Below, piece by piece: positions 3,288 to 51,596 of a stretch of 64,000 nt of DNA. The position numbers and the translations under genes are program-made. The notes under the pieces are model-generated. The model did no database searches and had not been told where the DNA came from. It saw only the letters and a list, made by a program, of their open reading frames with translations. The number at the start of each line of letters is the position of its first letter. Position 1 is the first letter of the stretch. The stretch lies in assembly GCA_963981015.1 (NCBI GenBank), contig CAXCCG010000001.1, positions 12,560 to 76,559 of the forward strand. The letters run 5' to 3'. This DNA is from an uncultured Gammaproteobacteria bacterium. GTDB lineage: Bacteria > Pseudomonadota > Gammaproteobacteria > GCF-002020875.

Positions 3288-3372
3288 TGGTGCCGAAGGC
3301 CGGACTTGAACCGGCACGGCTTACGCCACTACCCCCTCAAGATAGCGTGTCTACCAATTCCACCACTTCGGC
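3288..3372 (-). tRNA. leuU: tRNA-Leu (anticodon GAG)
   Basis: Reverse complement is GCCGAAGTGGTGGAATTGGTAGACACGCTATCTTGAGGGGGTAGTGGCGTAAGCCGTGCCGGTTCAAGTCCGGCCTTCGGCACCA. It has a 7-bp acceptor stem, a long variable arm, anticodon loop CTTGAGG and a CCA end. It sits just downstream of secG, as with E. coli secG-leuU. Confidence 0.9.
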
Positions 3373-9639: not shown

Positions 9640-9799
9640 GGGAACCTCTGAATAAGTCATGTGTAAATGCCTAACGCCCATAGTGCCCAATATCTTCATT
9701 GAAAACCTTGCTAATAGCCTGCTATTGGCTGCGATCTTCGCCTTGATCTTGGACACTATGGACGTAATTCAAATTACCCAGACTTGTTCAGAGGTTCCC
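9640..9799. mobile_element. MITE copy 1 (160 bp, 19-bp TIRs GGGAACCTCTGAATAAGTC / GACTTGTTCAGAGGTTCCC, TA flanks)
   Basis: Near-identical elements at 30695-30854 and 39917-40076. A perfect/near-perfect terminal inverted repeat is flanked by a TA dinucleotide on each side (9638-9639 and 9800-9801). There are internal hairpins (cccatagtg...cactatgg; gctaatagc/gctattggc). No coding capacity. Confidence 0.85.
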
Positions 9800-37050: not shown

Positions 37051-37728
37051 ATGATGCAACGCACCGGACTGCTTGCTGTTCTACTTCTGACCACCCTGCT
37101 CTTTTTGGCAGCCTCTTTCATCCCGGATGAATCCGTTGGGCCGCAGCACAATACACCATGGGACATTACCCTCTCCACTACTGGCAATAGCCAGCTGTTT
37201 GGCATTACTCTGGGGGAAAGTCTGTTGGATGATGCACAACGGCAGTGGAAAGAGGCTGCAGAGATCACCCTTTTCCTGACTGAAGGTGCCCCCTCAAAGG
37301 TCGAGGCCTATTTTCAACAAGTCACTGTTGGTGGCCTTCGCGCCAGCATAGTTGCCGAGATCCAGGTCAACGAGAAGGAGATGACAACCTTGATTAATCA
37401 AGGTGCGCGGATCTCTACCCAAGGGGACGGCAGTCGCAAAATCACTCTCAGTGATGAAGGGGTGAAGGGTGTTGAACAGAGCGTGGTCAATAGCCTCACC
37501 TATCTCCCAAAATCTAACCTCTCCAAAGAGATCATTCAACGCCGCTTTGGTCTGCCAAACCAGGTTTTTATCATGGAGAACGGCGTTGAACATTGGGTCT
37601 ACCCGCAGTGGGGGCTGGATATCGCAATTTCCGAGCAAGAAAAAGAGGTGCTCCAGTATGTTCCTCCCAGCCAGTTTGAGCGACTATTGGCTCCTCTTTT
37701 AAAAACACAGCAAGCCCCCACGACATGA
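37051..37728 (+). CDS. hypothetical secreted protein
   Basis: 225 aa with N-terminal signal peptide (LLAVLLLTTLLFLAASF); translationally coupled to the upstream ORF. Confidence 0.45.
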   Translation: MMQRTGLLAVLLLTTLLFLAASFIPDESVGPQHNTPWDITLSTTGNSQLFGITLGESLLDDAQRQWKEAAEITLFLTEGAPSKVEAYFQQVTVGGLRASIVAEIQVNEKEMTTLINQGARISTQGDGSRKITLSDEGVKGVEQSVVNSLTYLPKSNLSKEIIQRRFGLPNQVFIMENGVEHWVYPQWGLDIAISEQEKEVLQYVPPSQFERLLAPLLKTQQAPTT

Positions 37729-37955
37729 TCACCCTTGACCCACTTTCTGACCTGGTAGATGAACATATTGCAGTAATCTACACCCCAACACAGCGTCGCA
37801 AACGCTTTCCAGAAAACTGCGTTCAGATTGTGGACAGCTTCGAGGCGGCAATTAAAGGAGCTGCTGAGCTTGAAAACAGTCATGCGGCCCGAGTACTGGG
37901 TCCCGCACGCTCTTCGGAGGGAGTGATGCTCTACTATCTTGTTCAGTGGATATAA
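37725..37955 (+). CDS. hypothetical protein
   Basis: 76 aa ORF overlapping upstream gene stop by 4 nt. Confidence 0.3.
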   Translation: MITLDPLSDLVDEHIAVIYTPTQRRKRFPENCVQIVDSFEAAIKGAAELENSHAARVLGPARSSEGVMLYYLVQWI

Positions 37956-38133
37956 ACAAACTCAACTTTTCTATTAAAATCATCAATTTATATAAATATA
38001 ATACTTTCTGGAATCTTAACTTCTTTATCCATGAAGTAGTTTGATGGAGTCCCTTTTGGACACGCAACACTCCATTCACGACCGTTATAGTCGGCTTTAT
38101 TCAAAATAATTACACTTTTTCATAAATTGACAT

Positions 38134-38162
38134 TTGACAATTTTTCAAACTTCGTCTATATT
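38134..38162 (+). promoter_or_regulatory. sigma70-type promoter (TTGACA-17-TATATT) in AT-rich 270-nt intergenic region
   Basis: Perfect -35 hexamer, 17-nt spacer and near-consensus -10, ~65 nt upstream of the 60-aa ORF / dsrA-like operon. Confidence 0.5.
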
Positions 38163-38227
38163 CCTGACTACATTGGTTGGTTATTACACCCAATACCATG
38201 GATTAACAATTATCAGGAGATACGCAC

Positions 38228-38410
38228 ATGAGAAGAGCAATTAAAGTTTGGGGTGCCATTATGAAAGATGGTTCACAAATCACAGAAGATACTGAGGGTG
38301 TTGTTTCCGTTACCTGCCACCCGGACCACTCCGTTACCACAATGGATCAGAACAACCAAAAGACCAAGTGGGATGGTGAATGGGTCTCTTACAACCCCCG
38401 TTACAACTAA
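38228..38410 (+). CDS. small hypothetical protein preceding dsrA-like gene
   Basis: 60 aa ORF with strong SD (CAGGAGatacgcacATG). Confidence 0.4.
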   Translation: MRRAIKVWGAIMKDGSQITEDTEGVVSVTCHPDHSVTTMDQNNQKTKWDGEWVSYNPRYN

Positions 38411-38422
38411 AACAACCTCTGC

Positions 38423-39838
38423 ATGATACAGAGCACTGAAAAGTGTCTGTTCATGCAGCCAATTAAACCCACAGGAGTCAATGATATGTCTGAGGAAAAG
38501 ACCAAACTCAATTCCGCCAGCCCCATTCTGGACATCCCAACCCCCAACCTTGATGAGCTGGAAAAGGGACCTTGGCCAAGTTACGTATCGGGGCTGAAAC
38601 GTCTGGCAGCAAGTGATGCCGCACAAGCGAAGATGATGCGGGGTGTAATCGGCACACTGGAACAATCTTTCGCCAACCGACGCGGTTACTGGAAAGGTGG
38701 AACTGTAGGTGTGATTGGATATGGCGGTGGTGTTATCCCCCGCTTCTCAGAGCTGAAGGATGACCAGGGTAAGGTCATGTATCCTGATGCTTTGGAGTTC
38801 CATACAATACGCATCATGCCGCCTTGGGGTAACCACTACAATAGCGCTCTGTTGCGCAAGATGTGTGATGTCTGGGAAGAGGCTGGTACCGGTCTCATTG
38901 CTATGCATGGTCAATCTGGAGATATTATGTTCCAGGGTACAGACACCGAAGGTGTTCAGGTTGCCTTTAATAAATTTAATGACGCTGAGACCTTCAAGGA
39001 TGTAGCAGAGGATTTTCAGTTTGATATGGGGGGTGCCGGACCCGCAGTGCGTACCTCAGTCGCCTGTGTGGGCGCGGCTCGCTGTGAACAGTCCTGCTTT
39101 GATGAAGGGAATCTGCAGCGTGCCACCATTAATAACTTCCTGGATGATATGCACCGCCCCGCCCTACCGTACAAGATGAAATGGAAGTTCTCGGGATGTC
39201 CAAACGACTGTACCAACTCTATTCAGCGTGCTGATATGGCGGTAATCGGTACTTGGCGAGATGAGATCAGAATCAATCAAGACGGCTGGAAGGCGATGGT
39301 TGCCGACAAAGGGATAAAATATGTCGTTGATAACATCACCAGCCGTTGCCCTGGTCAGTGCATGACTGTCAACGATGACACTAGTCTCGAAATTGAGAAT
39401 AAACAGTGTGTACGCTGTATGCACTGTATCAATGTAGTTGCCCCATTGAGCCAACAGTATGCCGGCAAAGAGGGCGACGCCATTCTCGCACAAGGCGAAG
39501 ACAAGGGTATTACCATTCTCATGGGGGGTAAACGTACACTGAAGATTGGTGACCTCTTTGGCACTGTGATTGTTCCATTCATGAAAGTAGATACCGAAGA
39601 GGGTATCGAAGCTTTCCTCGAAATCAGTGAAAACCATGTCGACTTCTTTGCCGAGAATGCACTTGAGCATGAGCGTTCCGGTGAGATGATTGAGCGTATT
39701 GGTCTACCCGCCTACCTGGAAGGTATGGGGATTGAGGTTGAACCAGAGATGATCAATGAACCACGTCAAAGCCCCTATGTCCGTATGGATGATTGGGACA
39801 ACGAGGTTGCGAAGTGGAATGATAAAAAGAGTGCGTAA
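38423..39838 (+). CDS. dsrA: dissimilatory-type sulfite reductase alpha-subunit-like protein (DsrA family); probable start at 38484 (MSEEK)
   Basis: LDELEKGPWPSYVSGLKRLA N-terminal signature of DsrA. Siroheme-[4Fe-4S] motif CVGAARC...CPNDC. Ferredoxin insert CVRCMHC. SD AGGAG before 38484. Confidence 0.7.
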   Translation: MIQSTEKCLFMQPIKPTGVNDMSEEKTKLNSASPILDIPTPNLDELEKGPWPSYVSGLKRLAASDAAQAKMMRGVIGTLEQSFANRRGYWKGGTVGVIGYGGGVIPRFSELKDDQGKVMYPDALEFHTIRIMPPWGNHYNSALLRKMCDVWEEAGTGLIAMHGQSGDIMFQGTDTEGVQVAFNKFNDAETFKDVAEDFQFDMGGAGPAVRTSVACVGAARCEQSCFDEGNLQRATINNFLDDMHRPALPYKMKWKFSGCPNDCTNSIQRADMAVIGTWRDEIRINQDGWKAMVADKGIKYVVDNITSRCPGQCMTVNDDTSLEIENKQCVRCMHCINVVAPLSQQYAGKEGDAILAQGEDKGITILMGGKRTLKIGDLFGTVIVPFMKVDTEEGIEAFLEISENHVDFFAENALEHERSGEMIERIGLPAYLEGMGIEVEPEMINEPRQSPYVRMDDWDNEVAKWNDKKSA

Positions 39839-39873
39839 GGTAAGCTGAGAACCCTCCTCTCTTGGCAAACCGG

Positions 39874-39903
39874 ATGCCCCCTGTTTTCAGGGGGCATTTT
39901 TTA
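39874..39903 (+). terminator. Rho-independent terminator after dsrA-like gene
   Basis: ATGCCCCCT-gttttc-AGGGGGCAT followed by TTTTTT. Confidence 0.7.
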
Positions 39904-39916
39904 TGCAACACTCTTA

Positions 39917-40076
39917 AGGAACCTCTGAATAAGTCATGTGTAAATGCCTAACGCCCATAGCGTCCAATATCTTCGTTGAAAACCTTGCTAATAGCCTGCT
40001 ATTGGCTGCGATCTTCGCCTTGATCTTGGACACTATGGACGTAATTCAAATTACCCAGACTTGTTCAGAGGTTCCT
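39917..40076. mobile_element. MITE copy 3 (160 bp, perfect 19-bp TIRs, TA flanks)
   Basis: TIRs AGGAACCTCTGAATAAGTC / GACTTGTTCAGAGGTTCCT; TA at 39915-39916 and 40077-40078. Confidence 0.88.
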
Positions 40077-40140
40077 TAAACTTAGAATTCTAGGCTTAAA
40101 CAGAAAAATATTATTAATTTCAGACAACGGAGAATTATCC

Positions 40141-40617
40141 ATGCTAGAAACGGGCGAAACTATTCCTCATTTTTCAAAACCTGATCAAGAGGGTAATGAG
40201 AAGGCCTTCAGTGACCTTACAGGAGAAAAAGGGCTTATCCTCTACTTCTACCCCAAAGACAACACACCCGGATGCACCAATGAGGCAAAAGATTTTCGGG
40301 ATGAGATTGAAACCTTCAGAAAAATGGGGGTTGAGGTGGTTGGTGTCTCCAAAGACACGGCACGCACCCATACCAACTTCATCACCAAGCATGAACTCCC
40401 TTTTACACTGCTCAGCGACAGTGATCCAGAGGCAGAGATGTGTCAAGCCTTTGGGGTATGGCAAGAGAAGAAAAATTACGGCAAGGTCTATATGGGGATT
40501 GTGCGAACCACATTTCTGATTGATGCAAAAGGCACGATTCTGAAAGTCTACAACAAGGTACGCGTCAAAGAGCATGTATCAGAAGTCTTCTCAGATACCC
40601 GCAATTTACTCAAATAA
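40141..40617 (+). CDS. bcp: thiol peroxidase Bcp (peroxiredoxin Q family)
   Basis: 158 aa; FYPKDNTPGCT peroxidatic-Cys motif. Confidence 0.9.
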   Translation: MLETGETIPHFSKPDQEGNEKAFSDLTGEKGLILYFYPKDNTPGCTNEAKDFRDEIETFRKMGVEVVGVSKDTARTHTNFITKHELPFTLLSDSDPEAEMCQAFGVWQEKKNYGKVYMGIVRTTFLIDAKGTILKVYNKVRVKEHVSEVFSDTRNLLK

Positions 40618-40630
40618 AACCCGAACCTGA

Positions 40631-40846
40631 GAAAACCCTGAATAAGTCATGAACGAGTGTCTTACGCCTATAGAACCCAAACTCTTCATTGAAAATCTTA
40701 TGAACAGTTCACGATTAGTTTCGATTTTTCAAAGTGAAACATATACGCCGGGCAAGACACTCTGGGGGCACCTTGATCTTGAACCCTCTTTTAAACCCTA
40801 TAGACAGACATGATTCATTTCGCACAGACTTATTCAGAGCTTCCCC
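40631..40846. mobile_element. divergent MITE-family member (copy 4, ~215 bp, degenerate TIRs)
   Basis: Shares the CCTGAATAAGTCATG...CAGACTTATTCAGAG ends and internal blocks (cgcctatagaacccaa..cttcattgaaaa..ccttgatcttg) with copies 1-3, but is ~30% diverged and longer. Confidence 0.6.
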
Positions 40847-43404: not shown

Positions 43405-45885
43405 CTAATCCTTTTTATTAACCACGTGACGCCCAACCTCACTCCGGATTCGCGCCGCATTTCCAATCACCAACAGTGAGCTGATGGGCATCGAAACCGC
43501 TGCAACCAGTGGTGTAATCCAGGCCATCATCGCCAAGGGGATCATAATAAGATTGTATAGAATTGAGATTGCAATATTTTGTCTAATTGTTTTAAGTGTT
43601 CGCTTGGAGAGTCGACTTGCCAGCTCAACCTGCTCTAGTTCGCTGCTGAGCAACACAATATCTGCACTTTCAACCGAAACATCTGTTCCGGAACCCATTG
43701 CGATACCAACATCTGCCATAATCAGTGCCGGAGCATCATTAACACCATCTCCGACCATTGCAATCATCTCACCCTGTTGCTGAAGTTCACGAATTACGGC
43801 AGCCTTTTGTTCCGGCAATACCTCGGCAATCACCTTCATCCCCCCTCCCAGGGCTGCTGCGGTTGCTTCTGCAACCTGTTTGCGATCTCCCGTCAATAGT
43901 GAGGTTCTCATCCCCTGCTGGTGCAAACGCTGTATCAGTCCAGAAGCACCATTGCGCAGCTGGTCTGCCAGGGTAGCAATACCTATCACTTCTTTATCCA
44001 CTGCGAGATAGACTACACTTTCTGCGAGTTTCTCTCTCTGAAGTGCATACTCTTCAAGACTTGAGCTACAGCTGACCTGGTTCTTTTTCATCCAGCTGGC
44101 AGTACCCATGAATAGAGTACGCCCCTCAACAACCCCCTGTACACCGGCCCCCGGTGCATACTGAAAATCACTCAGTTGCACCTCATTAAGCTGCTCATTA
44201 TCCAGCAACAATTCGGCCTGATGCACAATAGCATGAGCAACCGGGTGCTCTGAATAGCGTTCCAGTGCATGTGCGAGTTGGTAGAAACGCTGTTCATGCT
44301 CTCCTGCTACTAGTTGCAGCTGCTGCACCTGCAACTGCCCTTGGGTCAAAGTCCCTGTTTTATCAAATATCAGATGACGGATTGCAGAGAATGACTCCAA
44401 TACACCTCCATTTTTGACTAATACACCGTGCCGGGCTCCGACTCCAGAGGCAACCGCAATCGCCATTGGCGTTGCCAGACCGAATGCACAGGGGCAGGTA
44501 ATGATCAGCACCGAGGTCGCAGCCATCAGTGCAACCTCAAAATCAACCTGGAGCCAAAAGAGGAAAGTAGCCCCCGCCAGAACAAGTGTTGCCATAACAA
44601 ACCAGGGGACAATACGATCTGCTGTACATTGAATCGGGGCCTTTGAGGCTTGCGCCTCTTCAACCAGATCAATAATTCGCCCCAGAGCACTATTTTTCAG
44701 CACCCCTTCAACTTCAAGCTCAACCACCCCATGACCATTCACTGTTCCTGCATATAGCCTGTCTCCTGCCTGCTTATGGACAGGAAGTGATTCACCACTG
44801 AGCATCGATTCATCAACCTCACTCTGCCCCGACACCATCCACCCATCAACTGCTACTCTCTGTCCAGGCTTGACCCGAACCCGATCTCCCTGCTTCAGCA
44901 ATCGCACCGCCACAACCTCTTCTTCATTTGTACCAATCCGTAAGGCCACACGCGGCTGAAGGTCCATCAAGCGCTGAGTAGAAGAGACGGCTTTACGTTT
45001 GGCTGCAGATTCCAGGTAACGCCCTACCAATATCACAAAAATGAAGTTGACCACGGTATCAAAATAGACTTCCCCTATCTCATTTCCACTTACGGTGATA
45101 TACGTTGAATAGAGATAAGTTATCGTGGCACCAATCGCAATCGGTAAATCCATGGTTAAGTGGCGAACTTTCAATCCACTCCATGCCCCTTTCAGAAATG
45201 GAAAACCCGAGTAGAGCAGTGTTGGCGTAGCAAGCAAGAATCCTAACCAGTGAAACCAGTGTCGAAACTCACCCTCATCTGCACCACTGTAGAGTGCAAT
45301 CGAGATCCACAACAGGTTCATCATCGTAAATCCTGCGAAAACCAGACGATAAAGCAGTGATCGATCCCGTTTTCTGAGCGTCCCTTCTGCCGTCTCCGGA
45401 TCAAAGGGAACCGCAACATAGCCAATTTGAGAGAGCCGTATAATCGCCTCAGAGAGCTTAATCTGCTGTGGGTCCCAACGAAGATGGAGCCTTTTACCGG
45501 AGAGATTTACCTGGGCTGAGTGGACCCCCTGCAACGGCTCCAGAGAATGTTCTATCAACCAAACACATGCCGCACAGTGAATGCCTTCAACCAGTAAATT
45601 GATCTCTCGTAACCCGCCGCTAGAACGGACATACTCAGACTGAATCTCCTCAAGATCGAAAAGTGCGGCCTCTTCAGAAAGTTCCGGAGGAGGCGCTAAT
45701 TGAATGCCTTCAGGGGTACGCTCATAGAAACCTTCCATGCCGGCACCATAAATTGCCTGACAGACACTACCACAGCCGTGACAGCAAAACTGCCGCTGCT
45801 CTCCCTGGATTAAACGGTTAACCGGCTGTTGATCTGGAACAGGAAGGCCGCAGTGGTAACAGCCCTCCTTATGGTGCCTACTCAT
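43405..45885 (-). CDS. ccoI: copper-translocating P1B-type ATPase CcoI/FixI
   Basis: 826 aa; N-terminal CxxC metal-binding repeats, CPC in TM6 ([12 protein letters not shown]), DKTGTLT phosphorylation site, GDGVNDAP hinge. Confidence 0.92.
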
Positions 45886-45921
45886 TCGCAGTGATCAAGT
45901 CCGGGAAGGTAAACAGCAGGC

Positions 45922-46431
45922 TTAAGAGGCCTCGGCATGTACCCGTTGTTCAGCGGTGTACGTATCCTCTTCGTGTTTCAGGGTTACTTGAAGATCCCAC
46001 ACCCCCTTCAACATGACCGTATAGTATGCACGATAGATACCCGGCTCGGTTTCAAGCAGAGAGACAATCATATCTTGCTGTCGATCTGAAGGTCTATAAA
46101 CCTGCAGATTACCACTCAAGCCAGTTACCTCCTTGCCATCTCTATCCATTACCGTAATTTGAAGCTGAGAAGGCGCACCAACTTTAACAACCCCAGACTC
46201 AAGGGATACTTGCCAACCCAAGCGTTTGCGTGCCTCGATCAGCTGCAGTACAGTGCGCTCATAGTCTCTGCCCTGCTCATAATAGTCATCTTTAACCAGA
46301 CCAGGATTGGTCAGAAAGGCGGTCATAATCATCCCTATATTGACCAGCACAACAACAACCAGCAGTAAAATCCACCCTAACACCCACGGGTTTTTAAATG
46401 CCTGTTTATTGGATTGGGATAAAAAACTCAT
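45922..46431 (-). CDS. ccoH: cbb3 oxidase assembly protein CcoH/FixH
   Basis: 169 aa, single N-terminal TM, FixH-like; position between ccoG and ccoI. Confidence 0.8.
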   Translation of the reverse strand: MSFLSQSNKQAFKNPWVLGWILLLVVVVLVNIGMIMTAFLTNPGLVKDDYYEQGRDYERTVLQLIEARKRLGWQVSLESGVVKVGAPSQLQITVMDRDGKEVTGLSGNLQVYRPSDRQQDMIVSLLETEPGIYRAYYTVMLKGVWDLQVTLKHEEDTYTAEQRVHAEAS

Positions 46432-46455
46432 CTGTAATATTCCTCGATTAAAATT

Positions 46456-47871
46456 CTACCTAGGTCCTAAGAACATACTCTCATATTTTGAGTTCAACTC
46501 AGGCTTCTCTACCCCTTCCAATTTGAAATAGACGGGCATAGAACTCTCTTTCATCGCTCTACGTGGCAATCTCAGGTAGACCGTATAAGGGGCCACTTTT
46601 CCCGGAGGAGAGACGAATGGTTCCTCAGCCCCAACCAGCTCGACCCCTTCCAACCCTTCCGCTGTTACTCGGACAGTCATCTGTTCATTGGTCTTATTGA
46701 GGATCTTCAACTCATATTTATTCTGAATGGATCCATTACTCAGTTGAACAAACAGCGGCTGACGTTCATGCAGTACCTTGATTTCCAAACCCGTTATATT
46801 CAGCAGACCATAAATAATACCCACAAAAGAGAGCGTCATAATCACAAGATAGACCAGTACTCTAGGCCGTTTCATCAACGGTAATACCGGTTTACCTTCA
46901 AGCGCATCCACCGACTCATATCGAATCAATCCATGTGGTTTATCAATTTTATCCATTACCGAGTTACAGGCATCAATACATAGTGCACAGGTAATACACC
47001 CCTCATCCAACCCATGACGAATATCAACACCCGTTGGGCAGACTGCAACACACTGGTTACAGTCAATGCAGTCTCCATTACCCTCAACAGTCTCCCCCTT
47101 CTTGAGACGTCCGCGAGGCTCACCACGATTATAATCGTACGTTGGAATCATTGACTCACGATCCAGCATCACCGCTTGAATACGTGCATAGGGGCAGAGC
47201 CAGAAACAGGTCTGTTCACGCAATACCCCCGCCATAATATAGGTCCCAACCGTAAACAGTGCCAGAACACTCCACTCGGTTGAACTTGCTGTCAGCGTAA
47301 AATAATCAATCCATAGCTGATAGACATCGGTAAACCATGCCACAAAACTGACCCCTGTAAACATCGAAACCAGTATCCACAACAGGTGTTTTTTCAACTT
47401 AACAACAATTTTATCTACATTCCAAGAGGCTTTATCCAGCTTTTTACGCTTCGCAGGAGATCCCTCCAGCTTCTCTTCCAACCAGGTAAAGATATCCACC
47501 CAGATAGTCTGAAAGCAGAAGAAACCACAGTAGACACGACCAAACAAGGTTGTCACCACAGCCAGCATGATCGCAAAAAAAAGCAGCACCAATGAAAGCA
47601 TCCAGACATCTTGGGGCAGAATAGTAATCTCAAAGATATGGTATTGACGCCCGGGAATGTCAAACAGGACAGCCTGTCGACCATTCCAGCGTAGATAAGG
47701 CCCAAAAAAGAAGAGCAACCAGCTTGAAGCGGCAATCCATTTCAGCCTACGAAACGCTCCTGGCATCCTTTTGGCGTGAATCGTCTCTTCACCGGTATTG
47801 ATTTTCCACTCTTGACTCTCTGCATAGAGCGCATCAACTTCCTTTCGTTGACTGGATGTTGCCTCTGACAT
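46456..47871 (-). CDS. ccoG: cbb3 oxidase accessory ferredoxin CcoG/FixG
   Basis: 471 aa; TM segments and two 4Fe-4S motifs (CIDCNQCVAVCP, CITCALCIDACN). Confidence 0.9.
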   Translation of the reverse strand: MSEATSSQRKEVDALYAESQEWKINTGEETIHAKRMPGAFRRLKWIAASSWLLFFFGPYLRWNGRQAVLFDIPGRQYHIFEITILPQDVWMLSLVLLFFAIMLAVVTTLFGRVYCGFFCFQTIWVDIFTWLEEKLEGSPAKRKKLDKASWNVDKIVVKLKKHLLWILVSMFTGVSFVAWFTDVYQLWIDYFTLTASSTEWSVLALFTVGTYIMAGVLREQTCFWLCPYARIQAVMLDRESMIPTYDYNRGEPRGRLKKGETVEGNGDCIDCNQCVAVCPTGVDIRHGLDEGCITCALCIDACNSVMDKIDKPHGLIRYESVDALEGKPVLPLMKRPRVLVYLVIMTLSFVGIIYGLLNITGLEIKVLHERQPLFVQLSNGSIQNKYELKILNKTNEQMTVRVTAEGLEGVELVGAEEPFVSPPGKVAPYTVYLRLPRRAMKESSMPVYFKLEGVEKPELNSKYESMFLGPR

Positions 47872-48040
47872 AACAAATAGACTCCACTAAACCCCATTAA
47901 ACTTACTAAGCTATTACGAAAAAATGAATATTCGTACTCCATGTGGCTGTCCGAGAATAGAGAGCCTACTATTTCTAAACCATTTCAGTCATAAAGTACT
48001 CACGTTTTACCATATTTAGCTGATATTTTCTCTATAAGAT

Positions 48041-48074
48041 CAAGATAAAAAGGGGAGCAGTATCACTGCTCCCC
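48041..48074 (-). terminator. Rho-independent terminator after cco structural operon
   Basis: GGGGAGCAG-tatca-CTGCTCCCC perfect hairpin followed on the minus strand by TTTTTATC. Confidence 0.65.
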
Positions 48075-48100
48075 TCCGGTACAACATCAAGTTCTAACAA

Positions 48101-48238
48101 TCAGTCTTCTGAATGTGTGGTATTCATCAGTGTACGCAATTTAAACCCTAAATAGATAACGATGATTGCAGTAACACCAATAGCAGCTACCGATGCTATA
48201 AGTACAAAATCTAGATCATGTCCGGTAAACATTCCCAT
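48101..48238 (-). CDS. 45-aa single-TM peptide downstream of ccoP (not in the ORF track)
   Basis: MGMFTGHDLDFVLIASVAAIGVTAIIVIYLGFKLRTLMNTTHSED; sits between the ccoP stop and the terminator. Confidence 0.3.
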   Translation of the reverse strand: MGMFTGHDLDFVLIASVAAIGVTAIIVIYLGFKLRTLMNTTHSED

Positions 48239-48304
48239 AACACTATCCCTCTCTGCTAAACCTCTCTTATCTGAAGCAGATAAGAGAGGGAATTATTATC
48301 AAAT

Positions 48305-49228
48305 TTACTGACCGCCACCTAATTGGTGAACATAAACAGCAAGCTTCTTAACTGAACCAGCACTCAAATCCTTACCCAAAGGACCAAAAGCAGGCATCAC
48401 TGCATTTCGTGACGCAGGATCAATCAGCTCACTATTCACACCATGGGCAATGGTATGCAGTGCACTAGCGTGACGATGATCACCGCCACCACTGACTTCA
48501 AAGCGCCATACAGCATCTGTCAAGTTTGCTGAACCGAGTGCCGCCATACCCTTGGCATCCATACCGTGACAAGCAAAACAGCCACCCTTGGTTGGATTGA
48601 TAAACAACTCTTTACCTACAGCATGCTCACCACCTTCACTCAGAGCAACTACATGCTTGGCTAGGTCAGCAATTTCAGTTTCGCTCAGGCGTGCCCCATA
48701 GTTTGGCATGATTCCCTTACGACCATTGTAGATGGTTGTCTCAATCTGTTCGACGGTACCACCGTAGAGCCAATCATCATCTGCCAATACTGGATAGCCA
48801 GACTGTGCTGCAGACATTGCACCATTACCTGAACCACCAGAACCATGACAGGCTGCACAGTAGTCACCAAAAAGTACCTTGGCAGATCGTACTGTATAGT
48901 TCTTCAGATCATCATCAGCAAGGATCATCGCAGCAGAGGTTTTTGGATCATTGATCTTATCCTCCCACTTCTGACGAACCTCATCAATTGCAGCCAAGTC
49001 AGCTTTATACTCACTAACTGCAGTCCAACCCAATGATCCTTTACTGTACCCTTCGAGATCCAGTGAAGGAATTGAAGGGTATAGGAAGAAGTAGACCAGA
49101 CACCAGATCCAGCTCGCGTGCAGACCAATGGTCCACCAACCAGGAGGATCGTTACTCAGCTCACGCAGGGTATCATCCCAGAAGTGACCTGTATTATTTT
49201 CATTTGGAAACGGATTATTCTCACTCAT
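48305..49228 (-). CDS. ccoP: cbb3-type cytochrome c oxidase subunit CcoP (dihaem)
   Basis: 307 aa; two CxxCH motifs (CAACHG, CFACHG). Confidence 0.92.
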   Translation of the reverse strand: MSENNPFPNENNTGHFWDDTLRELSNDPPGWWTIGLHASWIWCLVYFFLYPSIPSLDLEGYSKGSLGWTAVSEYKADLAAIDEVRQKWEDKINDPKTSAAMILADDDLKNYTVRSAKVLFGDYCAACHGSGGSGNGAMSAAQSGYPVLADDDWLYGGTVEQIETTIYNGRKGIMPNYGARLSETEIADLAKHVVALSEGGEHAVGKELFINPTKGGCFACHGMDAKGMAALGSANLTDAVWRFEVSGGGDHRHASALHTIAHGVNSELIDPASRNAVMPAFGPLGKDLSAGSVKKLAVYVHQLGGGQ

Positions 49229-49461
49229 TTGTTTTCTCCGTGAATGCTGTTTTCAGCCAGAAATTTCTCCCCTTCTACCCCATCCACGAGGTAGCGTTGA
49301 GACTCTAACTGCTCTTTGTTCTTTGGATTAAAGACCAGAAAGTAGGCTACCGCTAACACGAGCGCCACGGTTACAGTCACGATCAATCCAACCCAATCGT
49401 TTACTGTCATCGAAGCCCAGTCGGTATAGAAGTAGCCCATCTCTTTTTCCGTACTCATCAC
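49225..49461 (-). CDS. ccoQ: cbb3-type cytochrome c oxidase subunit CcoQ
   Basis: 78 aa single-TM protein between ccoO and ccoP with 4-nt overlaps. Confidence 0.8.
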
Positions 49462-50183
49462 TTACGGTAGGTCTTGCTGTAATCCAGTTTAGCCATGGTT
49501 CCGAGCACCTGGAGATATGCAATCATTGCATCCATCTCCGTCTTGCCACGGATCTTCTCAGCCGCACCATTGATGTCCGAATCCAGATAAGGAACTTTTC
49601 CTATACCTGGCATCATCTGCATCACTTTCATGCGTGCCTCGATACCATCAGCGTCCACCTGATTCTCAGCCAGCCATGGATAGTTTGGCATTACAGACTC
49701 AGGAACTACAGAGCGAGGAGCCATCAGATGCTGGCGCTGCCACTCATCTGAGTATTTGCCTCCCAAACGCGCCAGATCAGGTCCGGTACGCTTTGAACCC
49801 CACTGAAAAGGATGATCATACATGGACTCAGAAGCGAGTGAGTAGTGACCATAACGCTCTTTCTCATCACGGAAAGGACGAATCATCTGCGAGTGGCAGA
49901 GGAAACAACCTTCACGAATATAGATATCACGCCCTGCAAGCTCTAGCGCAGTGTAAGGACGAATACCATCACCTGCTTTCCAGGTTTCCAGGGTATCACC
50001 CTCTTTACGTTGCCAAAGAATCTCAGGATTTGCATTGTGCTCCATAGTCTCATCAATTGTGAAGAGTGGAACAATCTCTACCAGACCACCGACAGAAACG
50101 GCCACCATGGTAAAGAGCAGCATCAAGATCGCGCTACGCTCGATCTTATCCTGAAGTTTGGTTGAATAAATCTTATCAGCCAT
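49458..50183 (-). CDS. ccoO: cbb3-type cytochrome c oxidase subunit CcoO (monohaem)
   Basis: 241 aa; CFLCHS haem motif. Confidence 0.93.
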
Positions 50184-50201
50184 CGTTATCTACTCCCTTA
50201 T

Positions 50202-51596
50202 TTAAGCTTGACGGTCTTTTGCTGTCGCAACCGTTACCACCACGTTGTAAAGCATTACAACGCCCCCAAGCCAGTAGATCAGGCCACCAATTGCACGCAT
50301 CTTGTAGTAAGGCATCATCGCCGCTACAGATTCTGCGAAGGTATAGCTCAAAGTGCCATACTCATCATAGTCGCGCCACATCAGCCCCTGCATGATACCG
50401 GATACCCACATCGCAGTGATGTAGACCACCGCACCGATTGTTGCCAACCAGAAATGCAGATTAACCAACGCTGGAGAGTACATTTTGGTATTCCAAAGTT
50501 TCTCAACCAAATGGTAGAGGGCACCTGCTGCAACCATTGCTACCCAACCCAATGCACCGGAGTGTACGTGTCCAATCGTCCAGTCTGTGTAGTGAGAGAG
50601 TGCATTCACTGTCTTCACGGACATTACAGGGCCTTCAAAGGTAGACATTGCATAGAACGCGAGTGAAACGATGAGGAAACGCAAAATGTAATCATCACGC
50701 AATTTATCCCAGGCTCCAGAGAGCGTCATCATTCCGTTTACCGCACCACCCCAAGACGGGATGATCATTGCCAGAGAGACTGCTGCACCGAGTGATCCAG
50801 TCCAGTCAGGCAGTGCTGTGTACTGAAGGTGATGTGCTCCCAGCCATACATAACCAAACATCAGTGCCCAGAAGTGGATCACAGAGAGGCGGTATGAGTA
50901 GACCGGACGGTTCGCCTGTTTCGGTACAAAGTAGTACATGATCCCGAGGAAGCCTGCAGTCAGGTAGAAACCAACTGCATTATGGCCCCACCACCACTGA
51001 ATCATCGCATCCTGAACACCAGAGAACAGTGAATAGGATTTAAACAGACTCACGGGGATTGCCAAGCTATTGACCACATGTAAATAAGTGATCATTACCA
51101 GCATTCCGAGGAAGAACCAGTTAGAAACATAAATATGTGAAGTCTTCTTGTTGACCAATGTCATCACAAAATTGATAAAGAAACTCAACCAGACAACGGC
51201 GATCGCCAAGTCAATCGGCCACTCCAGCTCTGCATACTCCTTACCCTGAGTGATACCCAGTGGCAGAGTAATTACTGCTGAAACGATGATCAGGTTCCAT
51301 CCCCAGAAGGTGAACCATGCCATGCCCGGACTCCAGATACGTGTACCACAGGTACGCTGTACACTATAGAAGGCCGTTGCCATCAACGTTGAACCACCAA
51401 ACGCAAAAATCACTGCATTTGTATGGAGAGGACGGAGACGACCAAAAGTCGTATACGGTAAGTCCAGATTCAATACTGGCCAAGCCAACTCCGCTGCGAT
51501 ATAGAAACCAACCAGGGTCCCTACAACCAGATAGACCACCGCGGCGATGGAAAACCACCGAACGGCACTAAAGTCATATTTTTCTGCTGCTTCCAC
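50202..51596 (-). CDS. ccoN: cbb3-type cytochrome c oxidase subunit CcoN (catalytic)
   Basis: 464 aa; 12 TM haem-copper oxidase subunit I fold with conserved His ligands. Confidence 0.95.

Follow-up and report, generated by a model that had tools for sequence, protein, structure and literature searches.

The genes dsrA and dsrAB are used as single-copy markers to count and classify sulfur-cycling microbes, and in the Allochromatium vinosum-type cluster, dsrABEFHCMKLJOPNRS, the gene for the alpha subunit comes first. Two scattered precedents exist for an extra alpha-subunit gene. In Thiobacillus denitrificans, two copies of dsrA lie apart from dsrB (Beller et al. 2006, as described by Loy et al. 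2009, PMC2702494); in that account, this sulfur oxidiser possesses a canonical dsrAB cluster, and no dsrB follows its extra dsrA genes (78 to 83% identical). The second precedent is found in phages of SUP05, of which Lau218 (Podophage/Lauvirus; KJ183191-3, NC_024329) carries an oxidative-type rdsrA without dsrB, presumed to supplement the alpha subunit of the host. Second dsrAB copies have also been reported in Moorella thermoacetica, Chlorobaculum tepidum and Nitrospirae CG2_30_53_67 (PMC10504309, PMC2702494, PMC7596348). On the evidence of these reports, such genomes resemble the case examined here in having more than one dsr reductase gene set and differ from it in that dsrA-dsrB pairs were duplicated, often with one pair of another phylogenetic type or pseudogenised. 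The clade examined here duplicates the alpha gene only, and this gene appears to be homogenised with the operon copy.

We examined a stand-alone dsrA gene in a 64-kb window (the whole stretch of DNA that was analysed), the features of which are listed in Table 1. The longest ORF (38423-39838, forward strand) encodes 471 aa, and a start at 38483 was favoured by the fit to homologs and by a ribosome-binding site, ACAGGAGTCAATGATATG. The TIGR02064 dsrA model gave the protein 460.3 bits against a cut-off of 392.85, whereas the dsrB model gave only 91.6 bits (cut-off, 341.5), the AsrC model 26.7 bits, far below its cut-off of 324, and the NirB and NirA models 14 to 17 bits against cut-offs of 578 to 883. 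Identity as an Asr-type or assimilatory reductase was ruled out by these family scores. The GPWPSYV and CX5C...CX3C motifs, claimed in an earlier note on this DNA, and the ferredoxin-domain cysteines were confirmed by alignment with the solved DsrA chains 3mm5_A and 3or1_A, with the CVGAARC, CPNDC and CP..C...CVRCMHC segments matching the corresponding cysteines of these chains. The siroheme-[4Fe-4S] and ferredoxin-domain cysteines were kept in all orphan and operon copies of DsrA.

The window protein was 89 to 90% identical to the orphan copies and 77 to 87% identical to the operon copies of related metagenome-assembled genomes (MAGs), 54 to 64% identical to DsrA of SUP05, Sedimenticola, Thiohalomonadaceae and Sulfuricella, and 64% identical, over 96% of its length, to the Lau218 rdsrA product. 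By identity it groups with the clade's dsrABEFHCMKLJOP operon copies, and the oxidative (reverse) type was judged from these identities to operon DsrA accompanied by dsrEFH and dsrL rather than from a reference DsrAB tree. In a relative with an 85% identical DsrA, the gene heads a canonical dsrABEFHCMKLJOPN operon. The window gene shares protein family and oxidative type with the A. vinosum-type cluster, of which its 77 to 87% identical relatives are the first gene, and differs in being a single dsrA with a promoter and a terminator to itself.

A search of the six-frame translation of the 64-kb window by phmmer, with DsrA as the query, detected no DsrB, either adjacent or fused, and tblastn with DsrB, E, F, H, C, M, K, L, J, O and P of the relative's operon revealed neither dsrB nor any further dsr gene. 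The canonical adjacency of dsrA and dsrB is replaced by a terminator, a miniature inverted-repeat element (MITE) and bcp, a feature of the context and not of the protein. These results bore out the description in the earlier note of a dsrA without dsrB, preceded by a promoter and followed by a terminator, a MITE and bcp.

Table 1. Features in and around the orphan dsrA locus (positions within the 64-kb window)
Feature	Position	Strand	Description
76-aa conserved ORF	37725..37955	+	upstream of orphan-dsrA promoter
Promoter ATTGACATTTGACA	38126..38162	+	-35 TTGACA 38134-38139, 17 nt, -10 TATATT 38157-38162
Conserved initial transcribed region/leader CCTGACTACATTGGTTGGTTATT	38163..38185	+	candidate operator or 5' stem-loop
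w60, 60-aa ORF	38228..38410	+	first gene of unit, AGGAG upstream; small all-beta protein (predicted)
Orphan dsrA	38483..39838	+	oxidative-type dissimilatory sulfite reductase alpha subunit, 451 aa
Conserved 3'-UTR hairpin	39839..39871	+	invariant loop ACCCUCCUC at 39851-39859
Rho-independent terminator of w60-dsrA unit	39872..39902	+	12-bp GC-rich stem + T6
MITE, 158 bp	39918-40075 (with TTAA flanks, 39914..40079)	.	18-nt terminal inverted repeats, TTAA target-site duplication
bcp	40141..40617	+	thiol peroxidase (peroxiredoxin Q/BCP); NF006960, 154 bits
Divergent MITE-like element, 214 bp	40631..40844	.	related terminal repeats; after bcp

The window contains two more MITE copies, 98% identical, at 9641-9798 and 30696-30853. 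A separate 4-bp duplication flanks each of these (CTAG and CTAT), and the three 158-bp copies agreed at 155 to 156 of 158 positions. The inverted repeats had eight matches in the window against 0.04 expected by chance. Terminal inverted repeats, a target-site duplication, near-identical copies and the lack of a transposase ORF identify the element as a MITE, which we take to be IS5-like from its 4-bp YTAN-type target duplication. The element was missing from the dsrA-bcp spacer of all relatives, indicating that it was inserted after the terminator and is incidental to dsrA. The suggestion that a dsr operon had been broken by a mobile element was not upheld, as the dsrA-terminator-bcp junction lacked the MITE in every related locus.

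Thirteen related MAGs, each at the species level, and a number of metagenome contigs had the order w60-dsrA-bcp without the MITE (loci L002-L013, L015, L024, L046, L049, L051 and L052). A second dsrA was present in all 13 MAGs having the orphan locus and was in a confirmed dsrAB(EFHCMKL...) context in 12, while the 'operon' copy L026 is a 1.6-kb fragment without context. At L015 a single contig carries both the orphan dsrA-bcp and dsrKLJOP. The part of the earlier note that proposed an orphan or paralogous gene was borne out by these second copies. These results indicated that the window dsrA is a genuine and intact second gene for the oxidative-type DsrA alpha subunit, apart from the dsr operon. 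The locus has been inherited, with synteny kept, throughout a group of uncultured marine low-oxygen Gammaproteobacteria that corresponds in rank to a family. The NCBI labels within this group are Piscirickettsiaceae or Thiotrichales.

MITEs on both sides of bcp, and the fact that the comparison genomes are all MAGs or co-assemblies, could point to a mis-assembly that joined dsrA to unrelated DNA or to a pseudogene left after a MITE broke the operon. The same junctions, however, recurred in over 15 assemblies made independently from different samples, with the ORF intact everywhere, a dN/dS of 0.05, a conserved promoter, terminator and 3' element, and no MITE in the relatives. An artefact or a decaying remnant was hence considered extremely improbable.

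The orphan and operon copies were then compared. Orphan copies had a dN/dS of 0.050 and operon copies one of 0.070, indicating that purifying selection on the orphan dsrA is as strong as that on the operon copy. No column of the alignment separated orphan from operon DsrA, save N-terminal residues outside the tblastn ranges, and a clade-specific 12-aa insert was common to both. A functionally diverged paralog was rejected for lack of separating columns. The same two observations, together with distant relatives of w60 that on checking did not lie beside dsrA, spoke against the earlier proposal of a diverged 'DsrA-like' protein with a different partner.

In a tree, orphan and operon copies of dsrA were interleaved. 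Identical tracts of 674, 200 and 83 nt were detected between copies within genomes, and each was matched in 0 of 2,000 shuffles; such tracts were significant in 3 of 13 genomes. For 5 of the 13 genomes, the nearest sequence at synonymous sites was the operon copy of the same genome. These tracts indicate gene conversion between orphan and operon copies, with the qualification that the tracts and the swapped flanks of loci L050 and L051 could in part reflect chimeric assembly at a gene that occurs more than once.

The promoter of the orphan unit matched 11 of 12 consensus positions, and ATTGATATTTGACA-N17-TATATT was kept at the nucleotide level in 11 of 12 orphan loci, with synonymous sites near saturation; this conserved promoter was absent upstream of operon dsrA. 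The leader, CCTGACTACATTGGTTGGTTATT, was near-invariant across orphan loci, also occurred upstream of the unusual L050 locus and matched no Rfam family. Promoter and leader were otherwise confined to orphan loci, as was the 3' element, which indicates that the regulatory DNA of the orphan copy is distinct from that of the operon. FNR-type control, prompted by a TTGAT in the promoter and by neighbouring cbb3 oxidase genes, was dropped; no FNR box (at most one mismatch) was found at the orphan promoter or upstream of ccoN.

The 60-aa ORF between the promoter and dsrA, w60, exhibited 80 to 93% identity among related loci and a dN/dS of 0.05, indicating that it is a real gene. Conservation of this ORF upstream of dsrA homologs, which the earlier note had proposed to check, held for related orphan loci with the exception of L051, in which the orphan dsrA was present without w60. 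The AF2 model of w60 had six strands and a pLDDT of 87, and the best Foldseek match in the PDB was no better than E = 0.7. A wider family of about 20 clusters of 53 to 72 aa shares a C-terminal Y.PR[FY]N. The distant relatives that were checked lay in a phage-like contig or beside YceI/LysR, none of them adjoining dsrA, and w60 as a dedicated DsrA partner was weakened by these contexts and by the w60-less L051.

The same observations bear on whether the orphan DsrA works without DsrB, either as a homo-oligomer or with a small partner such as w60, in a separate sulfite-, siroheme- or redox-related role. Conserved pairing of w60 and dsrA under a shared promoter and strong purifying selection would fit such a role, as would intact siroheme and Fe-S motifs and the redox and oxidative-stress genes among the neighbours of the orphan locus, including bcp, cytochrome c and cbb3 oxidase genes. 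A changed interface or function should however have left orphan-specific substitutions, and none was found; gene conversion with the operon copy was tolerated, L051 dispenses with w60, and the distant w60 relatives that were checked do not adjoin dsrA. Furthermore, bcp lies downstream of the orphan dsrA in related loci, and the spacer accepts both the MITE and, in L009, an inserted ectR-ectABC cluster, and therefore dsrA and bcp are not coupled; bcp is probably its own transcription unit. Overall, a DsrB-independent function appeared unlikely.

The w60 family also had members in an IMG/VR viral contig and in phage-like contigs that carry Thy1, DUF3310, T5_A2 and ligase genes. These contexts, and the stand-alone rdsrA of Lau218, raise the question of whether the clade's ancestor fixed a phage-borne cassette of a small phage ORF and rdsrA, which was later homogenised with the gene of the host. 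Neither in the window nor in relatives did phage genes surround the orphan locus, and viral contigs scanned with the window DsrA and with w60 gave no close relative. The w60 alignment varied too much to be used in a pattern scan. The rdsrA of Lau218 lies on a phage genome, whereas the window gene is chromosomal and syntenic across species, sits amid housekeeping and respiratory genes and is closest to the operon dsrA of its own clade. Any phylogenetic signal of origin has been erased by gene conversion. We regard a phage origin as quite unlikely. It concerns origin only and is compatible with a function of the gene as a spare alpha-subunit copy.

Downstream of dsrA, the unit ends in two consecutive hairpins, the second being the terminator. 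The loop of the first, ACCCUCCUC, contains CCUCCUC and resembles an anti-Shine-Dalgarno sequence. Its stem covaries across loci (CUAAGA/UCUUAG, CUGAGA/UCUUGG, CCAUGA/UCAUGG and GAUAAAAC/GUUUUAUC), and the terminator is kept with compensatory changes in all orphan loci. For the two-hairpin element, compensatory change was observed in 14 of 20 pairs, a value reached by 0 of 500 shuffles; 91% of cells were paired, compared to 40 to 54% with the partners slid, and the folding z score of the window sequence was -4.2. A covariance model of the 3' element matched every orphan locus having sequence downstream of dsrA and had no match at operon or outgroup loci. The element occurred once in the window and matched no Rfam family.

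This conservation, the invariant loop and the restriction to orphan loci would also be expected if the hairpin and terminator were released as a 3'-UTR-derived sRNA pairing with the Shine-Dalgarno regions of targets, in which case the dsrA coding part would be little more than a redundant carrier that gene conversion keeps intact. In 3'-UTR-derived sRNAs, a seed region usually stands directly ahead of a terminator. However, a dN/dS of 0.05 across species with synonymous sites near saturation shows selection on the DsrA protein itself, and conversion tracts in 3 of 13 genomes are too sporadic to maintain an unselected ORF. The lack of an Rfam family also counts against an sRNA, and the hairpin could merely protect the 3' end of the mRNA. 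A role mainly at the level of RNA was accordingly rated as improbable.

Weighing these results, we consider that the orphan dsrA is probably a separately regulated spare alpha-subunit gene, the product of which would pair with operon-encoded DsrB. The w60-dsrA unit would be transcribed alone from its strong, clade-conserved promoter and would end at the conserved hairpin and terminator. Pairing with DsrB is suggested because the orphan DsrA has no orphan-specific substitutions and is under purifying selection; the orphan protein would thus be interchangeable with operon DsrA and would join operon DsrB as ordinary alpha2-beta2 rDsrAB. Such interchangeability would make the unit an independently controlled extra supply of alpha subunits, which would help when DsrA is in short supply or has a more rapid turnover than DsrB. 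The same logic is usually proposed for the stand-alone rdsrA of SUP05 phages. Extrapolating from relatives, a canonical dsrAB operon would be expected in the source genome outside the 64 kb.

A simple spare-copy model does not account for the tight conservation of the w60 ORF or for the CCUCCUC hairpin. A more speculative view, which we put forward only tentatively, is that w60, dsrA and the hairpin form a dedicated, separately controlled module. Either damage-prone DsrA would be replaced from this locus under particular redox conditions, in the manner of psbA repair, or the mRNA 3' end would give rise to an anti-Shine-Dalgarno small RNA tuning translation of dsr or other genes. The promoter and leader of the unit, the conserved small ORF, the orphan-only covarying 3' element and concerted evolution are compatible with such a module. 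The psbA (D1) families of cyanobacteria and cyanophages comprise extra, separately regulated subunit copies that undergo concerted evolution by gene conversion, and the rationale for D1, rapid photodamage and replacement, has been established experimentally. Both cases involve extra copies, some of them phage-carried, of one subunit of a multi-subunit redox enzyme, and the analogy for DsrA serves to generate hypotheses only. Repair logic of this kind, if true, would also explain why phages carry rdsrA alone.

Unlinked extra dsrA genes are already known from T. denitrificans and SUP05 phages, and what is new here is some anatomical detail. T. denitrificans is a betaproteobacterium, and its extra copies, as far as they are described, are presumably of independent origin. 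The Sulfuricella MAG L038, T. denitrificans and this clade together suggest that alpha-only duplication arose at least three times. A chromosomal, conserved and selected case joins the two alpha-only precedents, which suggests that reverse-Dsr sulfur oxidation has some general use for extra DsrA but none for extra DsrB. The promoter, the small ORF and the 3' RNA element are concrete handles on this usefulness. Surveys based on dsrA would count twice any clade that always has two such genes, because one of the two is without dsrB, and gene conversion between the copies would blur dsrA phylogenies.

Upstream of the orphan-dsrA promoter, a 76-aa ORF occupied the same position in most related orphan loci, with 61 to 79% aa identity. 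It had no Pfam or NCBIfam match and probably forms a separate transcription unit.

The start of dsrA was placed at position 38483 on the basis of homologs and of the ribosome-binding site, which gives a protein of 451 aa. This protein scored 460 bits against the NCBIfam equivalog TIGR02064 (dsrA; cut-off, 393) and was far under the thresholds of the dsrB model (92 bits; cut-off, 342) and the AsrC model (27 bits; cut-off, 324), so that membership of AsrC, which the earlier note had raised, was not supported. A NIR_SIR 4Fe-4S domain was detected by Pfam, and the solved DsrA chains 3mm5_A and 3or1_A aligned (E value of about 1e-85) across the GPWPS(Y/F)V, CX5C...CX3C and ferredoxin-domain cysteine motifs. 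Neither dsrB nor any other dsr gene was found within the 64-kb window. The earlier description of a lone dsrA bracketed by a promoter, a 60-aa ORF (here termed w60), a terminator, a MITE and bcp was borne out, and the gene is intact, selected, of the oxidative type and equipped with its own promoter and its own terminator. Two interpretations had been attached to that description, an orphan paralog with a different partner or an operon disrupted by a mobile element; the orphan paralog stood, and neither the different partner nor the disruption did.

Coordinates of features in the window
Feature	Position	Strand	Remarks
tRNA gene, single	3291-3372	-	Only Rfam gathering-level match in the window
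MITE copies, 158 bp	9641-9798, 30696-30853, 39918-40075		Flanking duplications CTAG, CTAT, TTAA (4 bp)
Promoter TTGACA-17-TATATT	38134-38162	+	11/12 consensus positions
60-aa ORF (w60)	38228-38410	+	Good ribosome-binding site
dsrA ORF, longest reading	38423-39838	+	
Two-hairpin 3'-UTR element	39839-39902	+	Invariant CCUCCUC loop, anti-Shine-Dalgarno-like
GC-rich stem-loop, then T-run	39872-39902	+	Downstream of dsrA
MITE, 158 bp	39918-40075	.	18-nt terminal repeats
bcp	40141-40617	+	Downstream of MITE
Divergent MITE variant, 214 bp	40631-40844		After bcp
cbb3-type cytochrome oxidase cluster	43405-51596		A few kb from orphan dsrA
FixI-type P-type ATPase	43405-45885		
FixH	45922-46431		
FixG	46456-47871		
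ccoP	48305-49228		
ccoO	49458-50183		
ccoN	50202-51596		

The three 158-bp MITE copies are 98% identical to each other, with terminal repeats of GGAACCTCTGAATAAGTC; all four elements of the family in the window are intergenic, and the one beside dsrA is a genuine MITE. P0001, the database protein closest to the window DsrA (89% identity), was found on at least five independent metagenome contigs, which had the gene order of the window (76-aa ORF, 60-aa ORF, dsrA, bcp, psiE, cytochrome c and DUF302) and a 130-bp dsrA-bcp spacer with no MITE inside. As relatives keep the arrangement and these spacers are MITE free, the orphan arrangement is inherited and the MITE was not its maker. In one species (L009, 9950-13160), an ectoine cluster of ectC-, ectB- and ectA-like genes and a MarR-type regulator, called by sequence recognition, was inserted between dsrA and bcp, and hence these two genes are not an obligatory unit.

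In a scan with each species represented by a single genome, the orphan locus was detected in 13 species-level MAGs, labelled uncultured Piscirickettsiaceae, Thiotrichales or Gammaproteobacteria and in several cases originating from Saanich Inlet. All 13 had a second dsrA locus, with a confirmed dsrAB or operon-upstream context in 12 (the thirteenth, L026, is a 1.6-kb fragment without context), and these loci ran on through dsrEFHCMKL wherever the contig was long enough. A divergent gene set preceded 11 of the 12 context-confirmed copies, its place being taken in the twelfth, L050, by a 76-aa ORF and a w60-like ORF. Contig CAYFOU010000080.1 (L015) holds both the orphan dsrA-bcp and, convergently, dsrK-L-J-O-P, so that coexistence in that species is independent of binning. 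The orphan pair and the 3' end of the operon (dsrKLJOP and a 451-aa gene) are on opposite strands with only a few kb between them, which makes the two dsrA copies of that species inverted repeats separated by roughly 15 to 20 kb. In a 14th related MAG, labelled Methylophaga, the operon copy alone was seen. By extrapolation, a dsrAB operon would be expected in the window's genome, outside the 64 kb.

When 15 orphan copies were aligned with 14 from operons, no column distinguished the two classes, and the ferredoxin domain of both had a 12-aa insertion that is specific to the clade and absent in outgroups. Median dN/dS values were 0.050 for orphan and 0.070 for operon copies; purifying selection on them is equally strong, and a diverged DsrA-like protein with a different partner was thus unsupported. 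In a neighbor-joining tree the classes were interleaved, with the copies being sisters in three genomes, and at synonymous sites the nearest relative was the operon copy of the same genome in 5/13 cases. Identical tracts of 674 nt (ERP019367_co2_103), 200 nt (ERP019367_co1_32) and 83 nt (SI047_bin108) were detected within genomes against a diverged background, lengths reached by none of 2,000 shuffles of variable sites. An older dsrA 3' end and stop, AGAGTGCGTAAGG, was present 20 to 160 nt past the present stop in L008, L046, L015 and L051, suggesting that the 3' end was replaced in these lineages. Together, the lack of a class-separating column, the interleaved tree, the identical tracts, the synonymous-site kinship and the 3'-end remnants indicated sporadic gene conversion between the copies, part of the mosaicism being a possible assembly artefact since the comparison genomes are all short-read MAGs. 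That the orphan locus is itself an artefact or a pseudogene is highly improbable for a selected gene recovered on independent contigs. In the relatives, orphan dsrA coexists and recombines with the second copy. In MAG SI047_bin108 the flanks look swapped: L050 has a 76-aa ORF, a 79-aa w60-like ORF and an orphan-type leader upstream of dsrAB-EFH..., and L051 reads MFS-dsrA-bcp. This reflects either recombination between the dsrA copies or mis-assembly across the 97 to 99% identical 3' part.

As nothing distinguishes the orphan product from operon DsrA, it would, on balance, be likely to assemble with the only DsrB into an ordinary alpha2-beta2 rDsrAB. Orphan dsrA would be expressed from its own promoter and ended by its own terminator, the locus providing an additional supply of alpha subunit under separate regulation. 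A role independent of DsrB, possibly with w60, which is encoded first in the same unit, is unlikely given this lack of distinguishing columns and the distribution of w60. The 60-aa ORF proved to be conserved upstream of dsrA homologs, with 80 to 93% identity across loci and a dN/dS of 0.05, and is a real gene. The exceptions were L052, with a divergent 79-aa version, and L051, without w60. Searching 1.8 billion representative proteins with a profile yielded only about 20 clusters of unannotated proteins of 53 to 72 aa that share MRR.I.VWG...DG...VVSV..HPD.SV...W.SY.PR[FY]N, with a C-terminal Y.PR[FY]N. AF2 modeled w60 with confidence (pLDDT 87) as an all-beta fold of six strands, to which no PDB match was found. 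One distant relative sits between YceI and a LysR regulator on a bacterial contig, and another is on a phage-like contig and has kin in an IMG/VR viral contig (distant relatives: L057-L060, phage-like contigs, and L056). A function as dedicated DsrA partner was not favored, because the distant members checked are not beside dsrA, L052 is divergent and L051 lacks the gene. In phage genomes, the family keeps company with Thy1, DUF3310, T5_A2, a radical SAM enzyme and a ligase.

Of 12 orphan loci, 11 had the promoter block ATTGATATTTGACA-N17-TATATT-CCTGACyATATTGGTTGGTTATT in almost invariant form; it was not found upstream of operon dsrA, where TATCCCATTGGGGATA-type repeats and TGACTGGTAAACGTTAAGGAGC are conserved instead. 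Because synonymous divergence between the species is close to saturation (pS 0.5 to 0.7), the near base-for-base conservation of positions 38126-38185 implies a putative bound regulator or structured 5' end; this block contained no FNR box.

At every orphan locus, the dsrA stop codon is directly followed by a hairpin with an essentially invariant 9-nt loop, (A/C)CCCUCCUC, and a covarying stem, with the terminator next (window, L002, L007-L013, L015, L024, L046, L051 and L052). Compensatory changes were detected in 14/20 pairs among 12 sequences, values reached by 0/500 shuffles; 91% of cells were paired, versus 40 to 54% with partners slid. The window element folded at -31.9 kcal/mol (z = -4.2). 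A covariance model scored 42 to 90 bits after dsrA in every orphan locus with downstream sequence, including one outside the model set. It had no match in operon or outgroup loci (best other match, 19.5 bits), the element was absent from the operon dsrA-dsrB spacer, and no Rfam family matched. This candidate element may be an mRNA 3'-end stabilizer or a 3'-UTR-derived regulatory (small) RNA. That it acts mainly at the RNA level, as its covariation might suggest, is quite improbable as an account of a locus whose protein is under purifying selection; an additional source of alpha subunit remains our preferred reading.

Unlinked dsrA copies of Thiobacillus denitrificans are among the exceptions to dsrA-dsrB linkage described by Loy et al. 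SUP05 phage Lau218 likewise carries rdsrA without dsrB (64% identity to the window protein). A Sulfuricella MAG (L038, 9977-11308) also has a lone dsrA, which encodes 443 aa with its own 15-aa ferredoxin-domain insert and has no dsrB within the fetched locus. Duplication of the alpha gene alone is thus a recurrent pattern that is known but unexplained, and the window is a new member of it. Derivation of the orphan locus from a phage cassette, to which Lau218 and the viral w60 relatives are pertinent, has a low probability and is compatible with an additional alpha-subunit source. As far as the literature was searched, what appears to be new is that the orphan locus is conserved throughout a clade, shows evidence of concerted evolution with its operon counterpart, and has a promoter and leader of its own, a small ORF upstream and a structured element at the 3' end. 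The L038 gene is preceded by an MFS transporter gene and followed, on the opposite strand, by genes for a 2Fe-2S ferredoxin and nifK/nifD-like proteins.

The neighborhood of orphan dsrA (cbb3 cluster, cytochrome c, DUF302, psiE and bcp) is respiratory or redox related. The conserved, divergently transcribed gene set at operon dsrA comprises a 61-aa ORF, a 224-aa ORF, a Cas6-like gene (Pfam PF09559 match) and a second DsrC-like gene, and the TATCCCATTGGGGATA-type repeats are conserved in the intergenic region between this set and dsrA. The set was observed in L001, L014 and L016-L025, as well as L031, L036, L037, L040 and L047, and is kept at the canonical dsrA as far as Sedimenticola and Thiohalomonadaceae.
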